Part shown: positions 12,697-56,576 of the stretch, in pieces
Layout: every line of letters starts with the position of its first letter
Numbering within the stretch: position 1 is the first letter of the stretch
Assembly: GCA_964445765.1 (NCBI GenBank)
Contig: CAYULD010000002.1
Coordinates: forward strand, 296,844 to 360,843
Reading direction: 5' to 3'
Length of the DNA stretch: 64,000 bases
Origin: an uncultured Rickettsiales bacterium
GTDB lineage: Bacteria; Pseudomonadota; Alphaproteobacteria; Rickettsiales; UBA8987
Notes under the pieces: generated by a model
The model's database searches: none
What the model was told of the DNA's origin: nothing
What the model saw: the letters and a program-made list of their open reading frames with translations, nothing else
Made by a program: the position numbers and the translations under genes

Positions 12697-13431
12697 ATGA
12701 AGAAACTAGCATTTTTAGCTACAGCAATAATTTTTACGCCTATGTTAGCAGAGGCACAAAGCTACAATTATCCAGCTTCTATGAAGCATAAATTAAGCGT
12801 TGATGGTGGCTTAATGTTCGCAAGTGGTAATACTAAGGTGGAAAATCTTAACGCCAATTTCAATTTAGCATCTTCTAAAGGTAAAATTTCTAATACATTA
12901 ATGGGAAGGGCGATTAACTTGCAACAAGGTGGGCAAAGGGCTGATGAAGATTATTTGCTTAATAATAAACTTAAATATGATATTAACGAGAAATTATACG
13001 GCTTTGGTGAGCTTGAATATTTTAATGATAGATTTGCAGGTTTTGAACACAGAATGCACGAGCTTGCTGGTTTAGGTTATTACATCAGAAATGATGAGAA
13101 AGTTAAGTTATCAGTTGAAACAGGTGCAGGTGCTAGGCAAACTAATTTCACTGGCAATAAGGAAGATATAAACGAATTTACCGCTAAAGCTGGTGGTGAT
13201 TTGAATTATAAGCTAAATGAGAATGTAGAATTTAACCAAAATGTTGGTTATTATTGGGGTTCTGATTTACAAGTTACAAGGGCACAATCAGCACTTAAAG
13301 CTGGCTTAACTGATGATATTTATTTCAAAGCTGGCTATATAATTGAAAATAATTCCGAAGTTCCAATTGGCAGAAAAAACAATGACCAACTAACAACTAT
13401 TGGCATTGGTTATGAATTTGATAATGAGTAG
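12697..13431 (+). CDS. Outer-membrane beta-barrel protein, DUF481/YdiY-like
   Basis: Signal peptide; SGNT, DRFAG, G.GY, C-terminal IGYEF pattern. Confidence 0.75.
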   Translation: MKKLAFLATAIIFTPMLAEAQSYNYPASMKHKLSVDGGLMFASGNTKVENLNANFNLASSKGKISNTLMGRAINLQQGGQRADEDYLLNNKLKYDINEKLYGFGELEYFNDRFAGFEHRMHELAGLGYYIRNDEKVKLSVETGAGARQTNFTGNKEDINEFTAKAGGDLNYKLNENVEFNQNVGYYWGSDLQVTRAQSALKAGLTDDIYFKAGYIIENNSEVPIGRKNNDQLTTIGIGYEFDNE

Positions 13432-13460: not shown

Positions 13461-13524
13461 AAAAGCTAGGGGGCTTTTGCGGTGTCACCGCTTTTGCCCC
13501 TTTCGCCCCTCGGTAGCCTTTTTC
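13461..13524. terminator. Probable bidirectional intrinsic terminator
   Basis: GC-rich nested stem GGGGC-TTTT-GCGGT-GTC-ACCGC-TTTT-GCCCC flanked by A- and T-tracts, between convergent units. Confidence 0.55.
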
Positions 13525-13560
13525 AGCAACTAAGTAACTGCATAACTACCGTAACAAATG

Positions 13561-13635
13561 TTAAGCTATAAAACCTAAAGCTGTAACCCTTGCTAATTGT
13601 GGTAGTTTGCAGTTAAATATACACGAAGTAGACAT
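13561..13635 (-). CDS. Putative 24-aa small ORF (MSTSCIFNCKLPQLARVTALGFIA) within a structured RNA, with an extended SD
   Basis: AAAGGAGGTAATCCA directly before ATG; long hairpin over the ORF; terminator downstream; not in the ORF track. Confidence 0.5.
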   Translation of the reverse strand: MSTSCIFNCKLPQLARVTALGFIA

Positions 13636-13810
13636 TGGATTACCTCCTTTACATTGCGTAAAAACTCTAAAAAATTAGAGATTACTAACCTATAAACTAA
13701 TAAATTCGGCTATTTATAAAATAAAAATAGTTTAAGAAATGCTATATTTTCAAAAAAATTTAAGCAAGAAAAGTTTTTATAATTTTTAGTAATTCAAATT
13801 TTATAATAAT

Positions 13811-14085
13811 TATAGTTAGTTGTGTTAAGTTTAAGAGTATTTGCAACAAGATAATTTTGCTTTAGAGCAAAGGAAAAATGAGCGAGATAGTTACTCATAT
13901 CTGCGAGATTTTTTCTGTAGCAATAAAGCAAAATTAGCAGTTGCCCTTTGGGTTGCTGCAAAAATTAAAAAATAGTTCGTTAAAAAGCTCGGAGATATGA
14001 ATAACTATCTCGCTCGCTTTTTGCCTGCTATTTTTTAATTTTTGACCGGCAACAAATGCTCTTAAACTTAACGCAACTAACTATA
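13811..14085. mobile_element. ~275-bp structured palindromic element, copy 2
   Basis: 33-bp terminal inverted repeat TATAGTTAGTTGTGTTAAGTTTAAGAGTATTTG (2 mismatches); two arms with loop GATAGTTAYTCATATC; central CCCTTTGGG. Confidence 0.8.
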
Positions 14086-14086
14086 G

Positions 14087-15406
14087 CTAAGAATGCGTAA
14101 TACTTGCACCAAGATTAAGCATTAAATCTTTGAAGCTCGGGAAGGAAGTTGCAATCATTTCAGGCTTATCAACAGAAATAGGTTTTCTAGAGGCAAGCCC
14201 TGCAATAAGAAAACTCATTGCAATTCGGTGATCACCATGCGTTGGAATTAAATTACCACCCTCAATTTGCCCGCCCTTAACAGCTAAACTATCATCTGAG
14301 CCGATTTTTGCCTCAACACCAGATAGCTCAAGCCCTTTTCTAATAGCTTCTAGGCGATTACTTTCTTTTACTTTAAGCTCCCCAAGCCCTCTCATAATGG
14401 TTTCACCCTTTGCTTTTGCTGCCACGATTGAGAGAATTGGATATTCATCAATCATAGAAGGGGCGCGTTCTGCCGGCACTTCAACCGCCTTTAAGTTTGG
14501 AGAATATTTTGCAGTAATATCTGCAACTTCTTCACCGGCCTCAACCCTTATATTGGTAAATTCAATATTTGCCCCCATCTCTTGCAGGGTTTGATATAAA
14601 CCAATTCTGGTAGGGTTAATTAAAACATTTTGAATTGTAACCGCAGAGCCTTCCGTAATAATTGCCGCAACTAATGGAAATGCCGCAGAAGAGGGATCAG
14701 CAGGCACTATAACATCTTTAGGTGTAAAATTTTGTTGCCCCAAATATTTTATAATATTTAAGCCATTTTCTTGAGTAATAGAAATCTCACCACCGAAATG
14801 TTTAATCATCATTTCTGTGTGATCTCTAGTTTTTTCCTTCTCAATTATTGTGGTTATTCCGGGGGTATTTAATGCAGAAAGTAATATCGCAGATTTAACT
14901 TGTGCCGATGCAACTGGAAGCTCATATTCAATGGGTAACATTTCATCAGCACCTTTAACCATAAGGGGTAAAAAATTTTCTTCTCTGGCTTCAAAATGAG
15001 CACCCATTAATTGCAGTGGCACTGTAACACGACGCATAGGCCTGCCACGCAAACTTTCATCACCGGTAAAGAATGTGCGAAAATTATAGGGTGCAACTAA
15101 GCCCATTAACAGCCTGCAACCAGTGCCAGAATTACCGCAATCTAAGGAATCTGAAGGCTCACTGAGGCCACCAACCCCAACGCCATCAACAATATAATCA
15201 GAATTTATTTTATTAATTTTAACCCCAAGTTTTTGCAGGCAGGCTTTTGTATTAAGAACATCTTCACTTTCAAGGAGGCCTGAAATTTTTGTTTTACCAA
15301 TTGCTTGTGATGCAAAAATTAACGCACGATGTGAAATTGATTTATCACCCGGAACGGAAATTTTACCTTTGAGATTATTAGAATTATTTGCCGTTAGAAT
15401 ATTCAT
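14087..15406 (-). CDS. aroA: 3-phosphoshikimate 1-carboxyvinyltransferase (EPSP synthase)
   Basis: VPGDKSISHRAL, GNSGTGCRL, ASAQVKS, RDHTE, KESNR, DHRIAMS; start reassigned to ATG at 15406. Confidence 0.95.
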   Translation of the reverse strand: MNILTANNSNNLKGKISVPGDKSISHRALIFASQAIGKTKISGLLESEDVLNTKACLQKLGVKINKINSDYIVDGVGVGGLSEPSDSLDCGNSGTGCRLLMGLVAPYNFRTFFTGDESLRGRPMRRVTVPLQLMGAHFEAREENFLPLMVKGADEMLPIEYELPVASAQVKSAILLSALNTPGITTIIEKEKTRDHTEMMIKHFGGEISITQENGLNIIKYLGQQNFTPKDVIVPADPSSAAFPLVAAIITEGSAVTIQNVLINPTRIGLYQTLQEMGANIEFTNIRVEAGEEVADITAKYSPNLKAVEVPAERAPSMIDEYPILSIVAAKAKGETIMRGLGELKVKESNRLEAIRKGLELSGVEAKIGSDDSLAVKGGQIEGGNLIPTHGDHRIAMSFLIAGLASRKPISVDKPEMIATSFPSFKDLMLNLGASITHS

Positions 15407-15855
15407 TAAAATTCCTCTTCCTTCCAACGCATACCACCGAATATATATTTAACTTCATTATCACCTTTGCGAGCAGTTAGCGGAAATAATTTTTGGCGAT
15501 ATTTAACAATAGAATAGATGCTACTTTCAAATTCGCCTTCATCAATAAGCTCTTTCTTATTGGAAATTACATCAGAAAATTTGCGAGCCATTTTGTGATT
15601 TGTAGGAAGTATCATTCCAGTAAAAGGGGTATCAAATTTTTCATCTCTAACAACTTTTAGCAAATTTTCACCGAGGTAAGAAAAGCGATAAGGCTCTTCA
15701 GCTTTAAGTAAGAAACAATCACTCGCAACTTTTTCAATCGCTGAAAAGACAATTTGTTCCTCCGCGGCTATTTCAGAATTTGCTTTTTCCTTCAAATCTT
15801 TGAAGTAATTATCAAGAAAATCAGCCAGCCTCATTCTTCTAAACTCAAACCCCAT
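15406..15855 (-). CDS. PAS-domain-like protein (alphaproteobacterial PAS_5 type)
   Basis: FSYLGENL...YRQKLFPL...VKYIFGGMRWK pattern; TAATG overlap with aroA. Confidence 0.55.
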   Translation of the reverse strand: MGFEFRRMRLADFLDNYFKDLKEKANSEIAAEEQIVFSAIEKVASDCFLLKAEEPYRFSYLGENLLKVVRDEKFDTPFTGMILPTNHKMARKFSDVISNKKELIDEGEFESSIYSIVKYRQKLFPLTARKGDNEVKYIFGGMRWKEEEF

Positions 15856-55222: not shown

Positions 55223-56576
55223 ATATAAAAATTTTGCTTTTAGTTTAATTGAGCTTTCAATTGTAGTGCTTATTTTATCAGTGGTTGTCTCATCTTCATT
55301 AAATGTGATAGGCGATAAAAAAATTTCAGAAACTAATATAAAAACTGAAGAAAAGTTAAAGCATATTGCTAAAGCTCTTAAAATTTATGCTAAAGAAAAT
55401 GATAGATTACCTTGTCCGATGAATATTGGCTTAACGCCAACCTCTACCAGTTTTGGTGATGAAGCAGTAGGTGGTACACCAGCAGAATGTGCAGGTGCAT
55501 ATGATAATAACTTAGGAACATTTGTTGGGTTTATTCCAGTAGCAGAAATTGGTTTACCACCAGATTATTTATATGATGAATGGGGTAGGCTTATTTCATA
55601 TTATATGGACGAATCAATGGCTTCCTCAATGACAACTTCAACAAATATTCCAAATATTGATGTAAGAAATATAACCTCTTCAGGCAGTGAAAGCACTATT
55701 ATGTGGCGTTATGCACTTCCTAGCGAAGTTGGAACAAATGTTTCGGATTGTAGAGATGGTGGAACTTCTACAATTTCTGCAACAAGCACAAATATCCAAA
55801 TTCCAATTTGTGCAGCATATGTATTAGTTAGCCACGGGGCTAACGGCTATAAATCAATAAATTTTGCTGGCACTGAATTAAGTGGTGCTTTAGGTGGCAC
55901 TAGAGAAGCTAATAACGCCCCAAAAACTCACGATGGTAGCAACCAACACATAAAAATATTCTCATTACCATTTAATAATTCTCCGGCAAGCTCATATGCT
56001 AACTATTTTGATGATATTGTAAATTTTATGTCTAAAGAAGCTATTTTAGATATTCAATTTGGTAGCACCTCAACTAGCACCTCTACCACTTCATCAAGTA
56101 CAAGCACCTCTTCTTCAACATCAAGTGGTTCTTGCACACCTTTAACAGTTAACTTAGGTGAAGCTTGCGATGAAGAGTGCTTTTTATGTAATACAGGCTT
56201 AGCTTGTTCATCAGGAACATGCATTTGCTCCCCCATTGTTTATAGTGAAACAGGAGGACCATGTGACGATGGTTGTAATCAATGTAGCGGAGATGATGTA
56301 TGCATAGATGGCATTTGTAGTTTATCAACTTGTGTAATTGAAGGTGAGGTTTGTATTTCTAATGCTGATTGCTGTGGAACGTTAAATTGTTTAGCAGGAT
56401 ATTGCAAGCCAGATGACTGTTCCGATATTGGAGAATCTTGTGGTGTATGTTGTTCTCCTTTTTCTTGTAATGGCTCTACTTGTGAATGTGTTCCTGAGGG
56501 TGAGCCTTGCTCTAGCGACTCACAATGCTGTTCAAATTATTGTGATGAAGGAGCTAGTGTATGTAAAAATCTTTAA
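55206..56576 (+). CDS. Type IV pilin-like protein 3 with Ser/Thr linker and Cys-rich C-terminal repeats
   Basis: AFSLIEL; LPCP, DEWGR.ISY, SHGANG, FDDIV; STSTSTSTT linker; 30 Cys in the last ~147 aa. Confidence 0.8.
   Translation: MKALNKYKNFAFSLIELSIVVLILSVVVSSSLNVIGDKKISETNIKTEEKLKHIAKALKIYAKENDRLPCPMNIGLTPTSTSFGDEAVGGTPAECAGAYDNNLGTFVGFIPVAEIGLPPDYLYDEWGRLISYYMDESMASSMTTSTNIPNIDVRNITSSGSESTIMWRYALPSEVGTNVSDCRDGGTSTISATSTNIQIPICAAYVLVSHGANGYKSINFAGTELSGALGGTREANNAPKTHDGSNQHIKIFSLPFNNSPASSYANYFDDIVNFMSKEAILDIQFGSTSTSTSTTSSSTSTSSSTSSGSCTPLTVNLGEACDEECFLCNTGLACSSGTCICSPIVYSETGGPCDDGCNQCSGDDVCIDGICSLSTCVIEGEVCISNADCCGTLNCLAGYCKPDDCSDIGESCGVCCSPFSCNGSTCECVPEGEPCSSDSQCCSNYCDEGASVCKNL

Follow-up and report, generated by a model that had tools for sequence, protein, structure and literature searches.

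The minus strand of the window (the whole 64,000-nt stretch of DNA that was analyzed) carries a compact locus in which a complement of the 16S rRNA 3' tail runs directly into a short open reading frame (ORF). Its parts, some of which were delimited by comparison of the host genome (G000) with a second genome of the same genus (G001), are given here in 5' to 3' order.

13739..13767, minus strand: candidate sigma-70-type promoter, TTGCTT-17-TAGCAT (sequence; hexamers kept in G001)
13651..13731, minus strand: possible 5' leader (alignment with G001)
13636..13650, minus strand: putative 16S-tail docking block AAAGGAGGTAATCCA, directly upstream of the ATG (sequence and predicted pairing)
13561..13635, minus strand: short ORF of ATG, 23 codons and TAA, MSTSCIFNCKLPQLARVTALGFIA* (sequence and ORF list)
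13535..13615, minus strand: long hairpin around codons 8-24 and the stop, with inner stems (predicted fold)
13505..13550, minus strand: conserved 3' block, GGTAGTT.TGCAGTTACTT.GTTGCTGAAAAAGGCTACCGAGGGGC (identity between G000 and G001)
13461..13509, minus strand: interrupted GC-rich terminator-like hairpin, then CTAGC TTTT (sequence and predicted fold)

The sequence and the ORF list bear out the arrangement described in an earlier note on this DNA, namely that AAAGGAGGTAATCCA at 13650-13636 abuts the ATG of a 24-codon ORF. That ATG occupies 13635-13633, 7 nt after GGAGG, and is followed by UCU as the second codon. The note also placed most of the ORF inside one long hairpin, and this structure was recovered both in the minimum-free-energy fold of a 281-nt stretch (z = -3.5) and in the G000/G001 consensus fold, where TAACTGCA-AACTACC (13615-13601) is predicted to pair with GGTAGTT-A-TGCAGTTA (13550-13535) over 15 bp with one bulged A. 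The plus strand of the locus also folds well (z = -3.55). The GC-rich terminator of the note is present as a hairpin (GGGGC / AAAA / GCGGTGACACCGC / AAAA / GCCCC) with a following TTTT, but it was not called by a simple terminator scan (0 found). A similar hairpin tip, TTGGTGACACCAA, occurs in the terminator of the copy in G062. The proposed promoter stood only in part: its hexamers (TTGCTT, 13767-13762; TAGCAT, 13744-13739) and 17-nt spacer are there, and G001 retains both of them at equal spacing (TTGCCC-17-TAACAT) with a diverged sequence in between, but it scored below the threshold of a simple promoter scan, which picked TTGAAA-18-TATTTT at 13753-13724 instead. The possible leader contains a block conserved in G001, ..ATAGCC.AATTT.TTAGTTTATAGGTTAGTAA.., as well as a small hairpin, CTCTAATTTTTTAGAG (13680-13665), found in G000 only, and TTACGCAAT immediately ahead of the SD block. 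Elsewhere in the family, 5' ends that were mapped or modelled fall only ~9 nt ahead of the block, and the leader in the window is thus putative. The downstream neighbour in the window is a convergent DUF481 gene. A repeat element was considered and rejected, as a genome-wide BLAST with the 351-nt locus returned only the locus itself (next E = 0.011, an AT-rich stretch), which makes it single-copy in its host. The sequencing runs listed for the organism are DNA runs only, with hot-springs or aquatic metagenome as their labels.

The host's own 16S 3' end, read from a truncated gene at the start of contig C1, is ..GCGGCTGGATTACCTCCTTAAAG with the tail TGGATTACCTCCTT, and positions 13649-13636 are a perfect 14-nt complement of UGGAUUACCUCCUU within it, in agreement with the T-variant tail that the earlier note had given. 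Of the 15 bases in the docking block, 14 are Watson-Crick partners of the 16S gene end, the first A standing opposite A; the bases that flank the 14-bp duplex are A/A and A/C. The predicted duplex between block and 16S tail has an energy of -23.3 kcal/mol over these 14 bp, compared with -14.4 kcal/mol for the strongest and -2.7 kcal/mol for the median of 1062 long-ORF starts. An SD core of as little as 4 nt is present at only 71 of these starts (6.7%), which upholds the note's remark that most genes here lack an SD, and GGAGGTAATCC was found just twice in the 1.69-Mb genome, at this locus and in the 16S gene. The rarity of GGAGGTAATCC, the duplex energy and the scarcity of SD sequences place the 16S match beyond chance.

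Comparison within the genus revealed conservation at both ends of the locus. The docking block is identical in G001, and the leader region retains 80-90% identity in windows, with a 12-nt indel that deletes the small leader hairpin from G001. The ORF of G001 has 22 codons, of which the first 11 are identical to those of G000 at the DNA level, with zero synonymous change, and the two peptides differ after residue 11. In the long hairpin, two C-to-U changes are retained as G.U pairs, the apical stem shows one A-U to U-A double change, and no pair is broken. The 3' block has 93-97% identity in windows, in contrast to 59% at third codon positions of aroA, and the longest run identical between the two genomes is 46 nt at the locus versus 29 nt in aroA. 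The outer stem of the terminator-like hairpin varies, with one double change, and the tip GCGGTGACACCGC is kept. At the level of these alignments, the comparison shows that the 5' block and the 3' block are under purifying selection within the genus.

The 5' block is shared with the Rfam family RF01867 (Caulobacter sRNA CC2171), whose consensus begins cAAcaAucGAAAGGAGGUGAUCCAGUGUCU. The source study of CC2171 is reportedly that of Landt et al. 2008. The 5' features of the family (a CAA-rich lead, GAAAGGAGGUGAUCC, R, a start codon and UCU) are all present in the window as ..CGCAAUGUAAAGGAGGUAAUCCAAUGUCU. The Rfam check suggested in the earlier note gave a divided answer: a family with the same 5' block exists, but the window copy itself matched RF01867 neither at the gathering score (threshold 75 bits) nor at E <= 10 or E <= 5, and a permissive Rfam scan returned only chance-level miRNA/snoRNA matches near the locus. 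Other loci that bear the block score just 24-50 bits against RF01867, under the gathering threshold, with a full-length match of 25-49 bits in 9 of 11 of them, and five of the seven copies found in other genera within the host's order matched at E < 0.01. We also used a model, R1, whose source sequences came from that order and did not include the window. Its top match in the window was the locus, at 23.0 bits (E ~4e-6), and the runner-up reached 9.2 bits. In this alignment the 5' block alone aligns, the internal helices are deleted and the R1 terminator falls on the ORF hairpin of the window.

The block is widespread. At least 120 loci were found in a species collection in which ~4 would be expected by chance (our own arithmetic), and of 401 genomes from the host's class 76 carry it, almost always as a single copy, with 0 matches for the reversed control. 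The GAAAGGAGGTGATCC(A/G)ATGTCT motif that the earlier note mentioned for other Alphaproteobacteria is therefore real, as both the collection and the class scans contain it. Neighboring genes vary among the order-level loci. A broad model could not be derived from an alignment of 42 diverse members, because the interior varies too much to be aligned by sequence; MAFFT with RNAalifold recovered only a small GGA/UCC hairpin and 4 terminator pairs. Two candidate features of the family were rejected. A GGAG-loop-CYUC hairpin, considered as a family-wide SD:anti-SD mimic, proved to be clade-specific (24 of 122 loci versus ~5% in shuffled sequences) and is missing from the window, and the base preceding the start codon is not a conserved pairing position, since all four bases are found there class-wide. 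The 14th pair of the window is for this reason not a family constraint. CCAG forms lengthen the pairing with 16S rRNA, according to passages of Hahn et al. 2016 (PMC5711450). Closer to the host, G002 (same genus) gave no BLAST, pattern or R1 match and 14 of 18 genomes of the host's family gave no R1 match, from which we conclude that the element is dispensable or fast-evolving. The sequence evidence shows the 5' block to be homologous to that of the family comprising CC2171 and the rre genes (rreB of Bradyrhizobiaceae and rreR of Rhodobacterales; passages of PMC5711450), and, judged by the same comparisons, the locus is a divergent copy of this already described alphaproteobacterial class of small RNA.

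The block also differs from other members in having A where they have G, which matches a C-to-U change in the 16S tail of the order: GGATTACC is the sequence of all 10 16S ends that were recovered from the host's order, and GGATCACC that of all 5 recovered outside it. A search for co-variation of the block with the host anti-SD, as the note had proposed, found the A form in U-tail hosts only (G000, G001, G003 and G062). By this pattern of substitutions the docking block is shown to co-vary with the 16S tail, and the co-variation amounts to natural compensatory evidence, at a position outside the classical SD core, for the tail as the partner of the block. The G/A versus C/U pairing further provides a ready-made genetic test of the interaction.

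We consider it probable (roughly 0.7) that the locus is a divergent homolog of the rre/CC2171 (CCNA_R0051) small mRNA, that is, a single-copy, independently transcribed RNA of ~190-270 nt whose output is ribosome engagement. The 5' block would pair with the entire single-stranded 16S 3' tail, over 14 bp here, and the pairing would set the AUG 7 nt behind GGAGG; the 24-codon frame would come next, mostly locked in a stable hairpin, and the RNA unit would end at its own terminator-like hairpin. A 30S subunit may thus be captured through its tail, and initiation into the structured frame would probably be inefficient and be followed by ribosome-dependent turnover. The functional output would then be ribosome engagement rather than the peptide, and the RNA could act as a reporter or modulator of ribosome status. 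Among the three readings offered in the earlier note, a 30S-binding or 30S-sensing RNA appears to fit best, given the shared 5' block and, by analogy, the co-sedimentation of rreB with 30S subunits that passages of PMC5711450 describe.

The frame within this RNA is constrained in ways that its peptide is not. Among 80 class-wide matches the start codon is ATG in 43, GTG in 29, TTG in 6 and CTG in 2 (our own tally), so that 78 of 80 have ATG, GTG or TTG. Frame 0 contains no stop before codon 15 and spans 15-26 codons in 110 of 117 loci, versus stops before codon 15 in 38 of 117 loci for frame +1 and 51 of 114 for frame +2. Codon 2 was UCN in all nine order-level matches whose search pattern left it free. 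In the 18-, 23- and 26-codon groups, 3-nt periodicity was absent and third positions were no more variable than first or second ones, and between clades peptide similarity is limited to Met-Ser. As far as these alignments tell, start codon and frame length are conserved and the peptide is not.

These data bear on the strongest competitor, a micro-protein gene whose 24-residue product would be the effector, with the extended SD serving just to adjust how much of it is made. A retained ATG/GTG/TTG start and an open, bounded frame are what such a gene would have, and the same block also precedes frames of 95 and 59-60 residues with hydrophobic, signal-like starts (G003; Azospirillum-labelled loci). 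RreB and RreR peptides are conserved inside their own clades, according to passages of PMC5711450, and the Caulobacter homolog is annotated as translated: passages of Schrader et al. 2014 (PMC4117421) identify sRNA CC2171 as CCNA_R0051 with the sORF CCNA_03965, list it as 'Translated CCNA_03965' and give ribosome profiling values of 2049 RPKM in M2G and 0 in PYE, i.e., in minimal but not rich medium. Those footprints could reflect SD-tethered ribosomes instead of elongation. The lack of cross-clade similarity past Met-Ser, third positions that do not vary more than the others, and the divergence of the G000 and G001 peptides after 11 codons without synonymous change all argue against a peptide effector. 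The passages of PMC5711450 also describe synthetic RreB and RreR as unstructured and report no effect on growth from a construct that should have overproduced RreB. On balance, a micro-protein gene seems an improbable account of the locus. The pentapeptides MSSDF, MSSEF and MSSGF are absent from one supplementary file of an S. meliloti Ribo-seq study (PMC10117765), the main-text passages of which do not mention the RNA. Among the papers listed by a literature search for sequence strings, only the 14-nt AAAGGAGGTGATCC, the complement of which begins the 16S gene end, occurred and no string extended into ATG; these occurrences are presumably 16S primer sequences.

Less probable again is a base-pairing sRNA that is not meant for translation. 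Its exposed, GGAGG-rich 5' end would pair with CCUCC-type sequences in other RNAs and might, for instance, soak up anti-SD-type sRNAs like a sponge. The family entered Rfam originally as a non-coding sRNA (RF01867), its highly structured body has compensatory changes in long-range helices, and some clades carry the internal GGAG-loop-CYUC hairpin noted above. Conservation nevertheless reaches GAUCC, a specific match to the 16S tail, where the variable position becomes A only in hosts whose 16S has U; one of the three bacterial start codons is retained at constant spacing; and rreB travels with 30S subunits (passages of PMC5711450). An attenuator, in which translation of the short frame as a leader peptide is coupled to termination and controls a downstream gene, would share the layout of short frame, alternative helices and terminator, and G001 does have an acetolactate-synthase-like gene downstream on the same strand. 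At several sphingomonad loci the downstream N-terminus presumably belongs to a branched-chain aminotransferase, a resemblance seen by eye and without confirmation by Pfam, which we also counted for this alternative. It is nonetheless very unlikely: the next gene in the window is convergent, the neighbors of order-level loci vary, Pfam matched only 3 of 68 downstream fragments (all different, with flanks of just ~400 nt), the peptides have no runs of regulatory codons, and the genomic context of rre is not conserved beyond Bradyrhizobiaceae, according to passages of PMC5711450. The type I toxin-like mRNA and the plus-strand anti-SD sRNA of the earlier note, for which a small frame within a strongly folded mRNA and the stable fold of the plus strand could be cited, can practically be dismissed, as the peptides MSTSCIFNCKLPQLARVTALGFIA and MSTSCIFNCKLSKMDRVTAFGF have K, R and D mid-sequence with no membrane-spanning stretch (by inspection) and diverge within the genus at a single-copy locus, and as the T-run follows the hairpin on the minus strand only and the homologous Caulobacter transcript, with its profiled ORF, maps to the SD-bearing strand (passages of PMC4117421).

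Ribosome engagement by an rre/CC2171-type RNA may extend into a more specific function. We tentatively propose, as a possibility that we hold to be rather doubtful at present, that these RNAs are dedicated, co-evolving partners of the 16S tail, in which G.U was tolerated first, once the tail of this order had changed from C to U, and A-U was then fixed in some lineages, the present one among them, and that they are strongly selected for tail occupancy. Such occupancy might, for example, sense free 30S subunits or ribosome status, or protect or mark the tail; the function would be independent of the peptide and of ordinary gene expression, in a 1.7-Mb genome poor in SD sequences. A simple ribosome-sponge role is without support, because overexpression of rreB left growth unchanged.

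The novelty that the earlier note implied has to be given up on its own terms, as Rfam and the literature already contain the class: its members are conserved across the Alphaproteobacteria and have borne the name rre since 2016, and 30S binding is known from rreB (passages of PMC5711450). The present analysis links the rre genes with Rfam CC2171 and Caulobacter R0051, two literatures without mutual citation in the texts searched, and adds sphingomonads and a Rickettsiales-like order to the range of the class. Three points may be new, namely the copy in a Rickettsiales-like lineage, which is absent from the main text of the rre paper (PMC5711450), a copy missed by the Rfam model in which the 5' block alone is alignable, and the A-for-G change that matches the U tail. 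We regard this as a useful extension and not a surprise; nothing is overturned.

Among known systems, ordinary extended SD sites of protein genes, such as those reported for S. aureus (PMC13009471), resemble the locus in that pairing continues past the GGAGG core, but they serve normal long ORFs. Chance-level cases of this kind among the block matches (Facklamia L041, two copies in G562, G655) differ in their second codons and lack a short bounded frame. RF01867 is closer: its 5' consensus ..CAAnnGAAAGGAGGUGAUCC-R-(A/G)UG-UCU equals the window block except for the G-to-A change, and CC2171 is also a single-copy RNA with a short frame inside it and with its own promoter. The RF01867 closing helix, which encloses internal hairpins, begins at codons 3-5 and extends almost to the terminator, whereas the long helix in the window begins at codon 8 and stops 34 nt short of the terminator-like hairpin, and the window copy gets no score against the covariance model. 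The rre genes, as described in passages of Hahn et al. 2016 (PMC5711450), offer the best-studied parallel. In Bradyrhizobium, rreB binds strongly to and co-sediments with 30S subunits, is weakly translated and held down by its extended SD, has a stability and decay that depend on the start codon, and gives no growth phenotype when overexpressed. The window differs from rre in having an ATG rather than a GTG start, an A rather than a G in the block, facing U in the host's 16S rRNA, and possibly an extra 80-nt leader. Its uninterrupted complementarity is 14 nt against the host 16S gene end, where the rre hallmark is 16-17 nt (at least 16) and a 14-nt match in E. coli gave weak ribosome association. 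The shared plan is otherwise extensive: a small RNA that stands alone in rre and putatively does so in the window (with promoter and terminator candidates of its own, neither of them picked out by the simple scans), an extended SD that spans the entire single-stranded 16S tail, a start codon that abuts or overlaps the complementarity (in the window, ATG directly after ..ATCCA), a very short sORF (14-18 codons in rre, 24 in the window), and a structured body with a terminator, or terminator-like hairpin, in a variable genomic context within Alphaproteobacteria.

The minus-strand locus at 13650-13461 combines a block complementary to the 16S rRNA 3' tail with a short frame and hairpins, and our reading is that it is a divergent small mRNA of the rre/CC2171 type. 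Inspection of the sequence confirmed the minus-strand layout described in the earlier note (block, ATG, 24-codon frame, hairpin, and GC-rich terminator-like element).

Features of the locus and its flanking genes
13650-13636, minus strand: 16S-tail docking block AAAGGAGGTAATCCA, as the earlier note described it
13635-13633, minus strand: start codon ATG of the 24-codon frame, also in the ORF listing
13563-13561, minus strand: stop codon TAA of the 24-codon frame
13615-13601 with 13550-13535, minus strand: long hairpin, TAACTGCA-AACTACC pairing with GGTAGTT-A-TGCAGTTA
Ending at 13461, the end of the unit, minus strand: interrupted GC-rich hairpin GGGGC / GCGGTGACACCGC / GCCCC, then TTTT
14087-15427, minus strand: EPSP-synthase gene (aroA), 3' end toward the element
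12697-13431, plus strand: DUF481 gene, convergent to the element

The ATG is positioned 7 nt after GGAGG, and a conserved stretch of ~80 nt upstream of the block is a candidate leader. A 281-nt minus-strand stretch was predicted to be more stable than 200 of 200 shuffles (z = -3.5), but folding energy does not decide the strand because the plus strand likewise beats its shuffles. The proposed GC-rich terminator possesses the hairpin and TTTT, but a simple terminator scan called none at the element. Similarly, the proposed promoter TTGCTT-17-TAGCAT was absent from the list of a simple promoter scan, its first hexamer matching at only 3 of 6 positions, but the same-genus genome G001, whose intervening spacer has diverged, retains both hexamers and the distance between them. 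A permissive Rfam search, through a chance-level mir-548 match, pointed to a nearly perfect inverted repeat of ~134 nt (13881-14014; AGCGAGATAGTTACTCATATCTGCGAGATTTTT ... AAAAAGCTCGGAGATATGAATAACTATCTCGCT) that separates the aroA stop from the element; as one possible identity, it could be the aroA terminator.

The Rfam 16S (SSU) model reported no 16S gene in the host assembly. A scripted search recovered a truncated 16S 3' end (..GTCGTAACAAGGTAGCCGTTTCGGAAGGAGCGGCTGGATTACCTCCTTAAAG) at the start of contig C1, where, outside the window, the first ~210 bases include the last ~60 nt of the 16S at the contig edge, missed by the SSU model. Because this end reads GTCGTAACAAGGTAGCCGTTTCGGAAGGAGCGGCTGGATTACCTCCTTAAAG, 14 nt of the block form uninterrupted Watson-Crick pairs with the host tail UGGAUUACCUCCUU, and the fifteenth base faces A; the T-variant tail named in the earlier note is thus the host's own. 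The block:tail duplex has a predicted energy of -23.3 kcal/mol, compared with a median of -2.7 and a minimum of -14.4 kcal/mol for 1062 long-ORF starts against the same tail. Besides the element, a single site genome-wide reaches -20 kcal/mol or lower, the complement of the 16S gene itself (-24.6), and GGAGGTAATCC occurs twice in the 1.69-Mb genome, at the element and in the 16S gene. The second-strongest predicted partner after the element is AGGGAGAGGGAGGTAGTCATAATCA (-19.6 kcal/mol; contig C2, minus-strand index 493736). SD sequences are rare in this genome, as had been noticed: the 4-mer core is present at 71 of 1062 starts (6.7%), and none of these starts matches the 15-mer over more than 8 nt.

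The homolog in G001 is 79% identical by BLAST; in G002, a second genome of the genus, neither BLAST nor the pattern matched the locus and the covariance model R1 (see below) gave no hit. The element is not one of the palindromic repeats of the host genome. Pairwise alignment of the host and G001 revealed identity running from TTACGCAAT to the end of codon 11, a diverged mid-frame, and a nearly identical 3' block of ~45 nt; the two frames encode MSTSCIFNCKLPQLARVTALGFIA and MSTSCIFNCKLSKMDRVTAFGF. Identical runs reach 46 nt at the element versus 29 nt in the neighboring aroA, which is 80.6% identical overall and 59% at third positions. A consensus fold computed for the pair of sequences retains 53 of 53 base pairs, with two double compensatory and five one-sided changes, and this covariation is consistent with the predicted fold, as weak support given n = 2. 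The consensus fold also predicts a local hairpin in the window copy that pairs GAGGUA with UACUUC.

The motif that the earlier note mentioned for other alphaproteobacterial intergenic regions proved to be the 5' consensus of RF01867 (CC2171 in Rfam), which begins cAAcaAucGAAAGGAGGUGAUCCAGUGUCUCAU. The pattern AAAGGAGGTRATCCRATGTC, run against a single genome for each species, returned at least 120 stretches, with ~4 expected by chance (arithmetic from collection size). Among the matches listed, titles were mostly alphaproteobacterial (Sphingomonadales, Rhizobiales, Hyphomonadaceae, Paracoccaceae, Rhodospirillales, and others), with a few gammaproteobacterial names and one Facklamia protein gene (L041); a short frame followed the block in 119 of 120 loci, L041 being the exception, and CAACAA-like sequence was common upstream. 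The class-wide scan, less biased than the AAAGGAGGTRATCCRATGTC scan, used AAGGAGGTNATCCNNTG with three positions free and matched in 76 of 401 genomes (reversed-pattern control, 0), with one match in 72 and two in 4. Over its 80 rows, the variable SD position was G in 76, A in 3, and C in 1, and all four bases occurred before the start codon. Within the host's order, AAGGAGGTRATCCRRTG was found in 9 of 301 genomes (reversed control, 1 hit).

At gathering thresholds (75 bits for RF01867), Rfam recognized 0 of 20 block-bearing loci. In permissive mode, 9 of 11 loci matched RF01867 over the full model (25-49 bits, E 6.5e-8 to 0.04), the two missed being a Pseudohongiella-labelled locus and G001. 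Among copies from other genera of the host's order, five of seven matched RF01867 at E < 0.01 (33-50 bits) and those of G003 and G062 matched weakly; the window copy and G001 gave no match at E <= 5. Six of the nine order-level genomes carry compact units of ~130-210 nt with frames of 21-24 codons and terminators, and in the compact copies two long-range helices have changed in compensatory fashion (AGUCA/UGACU versus GUGAA/UUCAC; GCCUGCG/CGCAGGC versus GCCUACG/CGUAGGC). R1, built from these six with the window and G001 excluded, placed the window locus at the top of its matches in the 64-kb window (23.0 bits, rough E 4e-6; next, 9.2 bits), scored 23.9 bits on G001, and matched in 4 of 18 genomes of the host's family, one marginally. 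The score of the window copy came from the 5' block; internal helices were deleted and the model terminator was placed on the ORF hairpin. The terminator tip of G062, TTGGTGACACCAA, resembles the window tip GCGGTGACACCGC. We read the docking module and layout (block, start, short helix-held frame, own terminator, single copy) as probably common by descent with the family, and the body of the window copy as having diverged past alignment or been replaced. The weak second R1 match (55473-55572, minus strand; E about 0.1), on GGTGGTAAACCAATTTCT, is probably chance.

The block also co-varies with the host anti-SD, as the earlier note had proposed to examine. All ten 16S 3' ends recovered in the host's order (G000, G001, G002, G010, G027, G163, G205, G239, G003, and G062) read GGATTACCTCCTT (U-tail), and all five recovered outside it (G301-G304 and G562) read GGATCACCTCCTT; G305 has no assembled 16S and so lies outside the comparison. 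For Caulobacter, PMC4117421 gives the tail as CACCUCCU. The A form of the family block occurs only in G000 (the host), G001, G003, and G062, all U-tail hosts, and the G form, making a G.U pair, occurs in the U-tail hosts G027, G163, G205, and G239 as well as in G036 (tail not recovered). All C-tail hosts in the sample have the G form: G occupies the facing position in 119 of 119 non-Firmicute loci among the matches listed in the species scan and in all family-type class-wide rows except the host's own; the other A/C matches belong to ordinary long genes whose second codon differs (224 residues, two G562 copies; >74, G655; 162, G667). Since the variable position lies in the loop of the sole hairpin that Rfam draws over the block, intramolecular structure does not explain the A/G pattern and 16S pairing does, in a sample with perhaps two independent lineages of A forms and with C-type tails verified in only five genomes. 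In G301-G304 (hosts of L061, L079, L056, and L072), the 13-mer GGATCACCTCCTT occurs only in rRNA operons and, as complement, in the rre/CC2171 locus.

Experimental background comes from two sets of records. Hahn et al. (2016; PMC5711450) describe rreB of Bradyrhizobiaceae as a 165-nt mRNA with a 14-codon sORF and a stretch of 17 nt whose complementarity to the 16S 3' end is perfect, taking in the first base of its GTG start. It is found full-length in the ribosome pellet, co-sediments with 30S subunits, and requires the 5' extension of the SD for ribosome localization; overexpression left growth unaffected, and function was called elusive (PMC5711450). They also named the 18-codon rhodobacterial rreR and reported a plasmid-borne Azospirillum rre gene with an ATG start (PMC5711450). 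A literature search listed no later work on rreB/rreR in this sense among the best 15 of 1,105 matches. The CC2171_CC2172 probe corresponds to CCNA_R0051 (2404309-2404501, plus strand), conserved and with a mapped TSS, annotated 'Translated CCNA_03965' for a new 87-nt CDS (2404323-2404409) from ribosome profiling (Schrader et al. 2014, PMC4117421). In Caulobacter NA1000, sORF profiling gave 2049 RPKM in M2G minimal and 0 in PYE rich medium, whereas RNA-seq (1696 and 1334 RPKM) indicated abundance in both (PMC4117421). The contrast reflects strong condition dependence or technical dropout, and we found no discussion of it in the literature. Two tables give R0051 its own promoter, 4.4-fold nonspecific induction by mitomycin C, and a peak in G1. 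A Methylorubrum preprint confirmed CC2171 by Northern blot and states that no condition affecting it was identified; our search found no other discussion of CC2171 by name, and the RNA appears as a bare entry in two Rfam 15 texts and a Mesorhizobium survey.

Several constraints provide sequence-level evidence that translation of the frame is under selection: start-codon type (ATG, GTG, or TTG in 78 of 80 class-wide rows, at 43, 29, and 6; CTG in 2), spacing, codon 2 (UCN in 9 of 9 order-level matches where the pattern left it free), and a bounded frame. Among the matches listed (119 unique loci), frame 0 had no stop before codon 15 and a stop by codon 26 in 110 of 117; stops before codon 15 occurred in 38 of 117 for frame +1 and 51 of 114 for frame +2, which stayed open up to 119 and 131 codons, although these counts overstate independence, the loci being related and 59 being 18-codon sphingomonad forms. 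Where the species-scan pattern imposed TC, the codon-2 wobble base was T in 91, G in 23, A in 4, and C in 1 of the matches listed. There is likewise evidence, again from comparison of copies, that the peptide itself is not under selection: no similarity between clades extends past Met-Ser among the matches listed, and positional entropy detected no excess third-position variability in the 18-codon (n = 52; 0.97/1.03/0.79), 23-codon (n = 10; 1.47/1.37/1.48), or 26-codon group (n = 16; 1.43/1.51/1.49). These frame constraints and the lack of peptide selection, together with the rreB experiments and Caulobacter footprints, fit a frame that needs ribosome entry and whose product matters little.

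Some loci have further features. Among the matches listed, 24 of 122 unique loci, versus about 5% of shuffles, have an internal hairpin of GGAG(G) with (C)CUCC or CYUC ~50-60 nt past the start (L133, L134, L138-L140, and many species-scan loci), an intramolecular SD:anti-SD look-alike often read Glu-Gln-Pro; it is clade-specific, and the window copy lacks it. Longer frames that begin with hydrophobic, signal-like sequence also follow the block: 95 residues in G003, a genome of the host's family (VSKPSYITKLATAAVIGLMSVAGTAGTALA..; around 1500 in L135), and 59-60 in the Azospirillum-labelled L047, L064, and L098. Branched-chain amino-acid genes adjoin the element in several lineages, which may be coincidence: an acetolactate-synthase-like gene in G001 (L009, 1930 onward), what we take to be an ilvE-like N-terminus, unconfirmed by Pfam, in sphingomonad loci L021, L043, L055, L077, and L105, and the convergent Caulobacter CC_2172 (isovaleryl-CoA dehydrogenase).

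The window copy offers a predicted maximal-affinity docking site, correct start spacing, and a frame within stable structure, with selection acting on all three, and its block co-varies with the 16S tail; studies of homologs add binding to 30S subunits, weak translation, decay that depends on ribosomes, and footprints that vary with the medium (PMC5711450, PMC4117421). The RNA would act by engaging the ribosome, either to sense or modulate ribosome status or to mark the tail, and 30S binding may open the predicted GAGGUA/UACUUC hairpin, as Hahn et al. propose for rreB. Of the interpretations in the earlier note, a 30S-binding or sensing RNA fits best, given the 5' block shared with the rre/CC2171 family and the 30S binding known from rreB.

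The phenomenon is already known, rre having been published in 2016 and CC2171 catalogued in Rfam. Because the RF01867 consensus 17-mer GAAAGGAGGUGAUCCAG is what the description of rre by Hahn et al. implies, we infer that rre and CC2171/R0051 are one class, a link that we found stated in neither source; the words Rickettsiales, Sphingomonadales, Rfam, covariation, and compensatory are absent from the main text of PMC5711450. The window copy has 14 nt of complementarity, compared with at least 16 nt in the strict rre criterion, and lies below the Rfam score criterion for RF01867, so we file it as a variant of the rre/CC2171 kind. Its interest lies in its divergence and invisibility to Rfam within a reduced, Rickettsiales-like genome poor in SD sequences, in the natural compensatory change between block and 16S tail, and in the linking of the rre records with those of CC2171/R0051.
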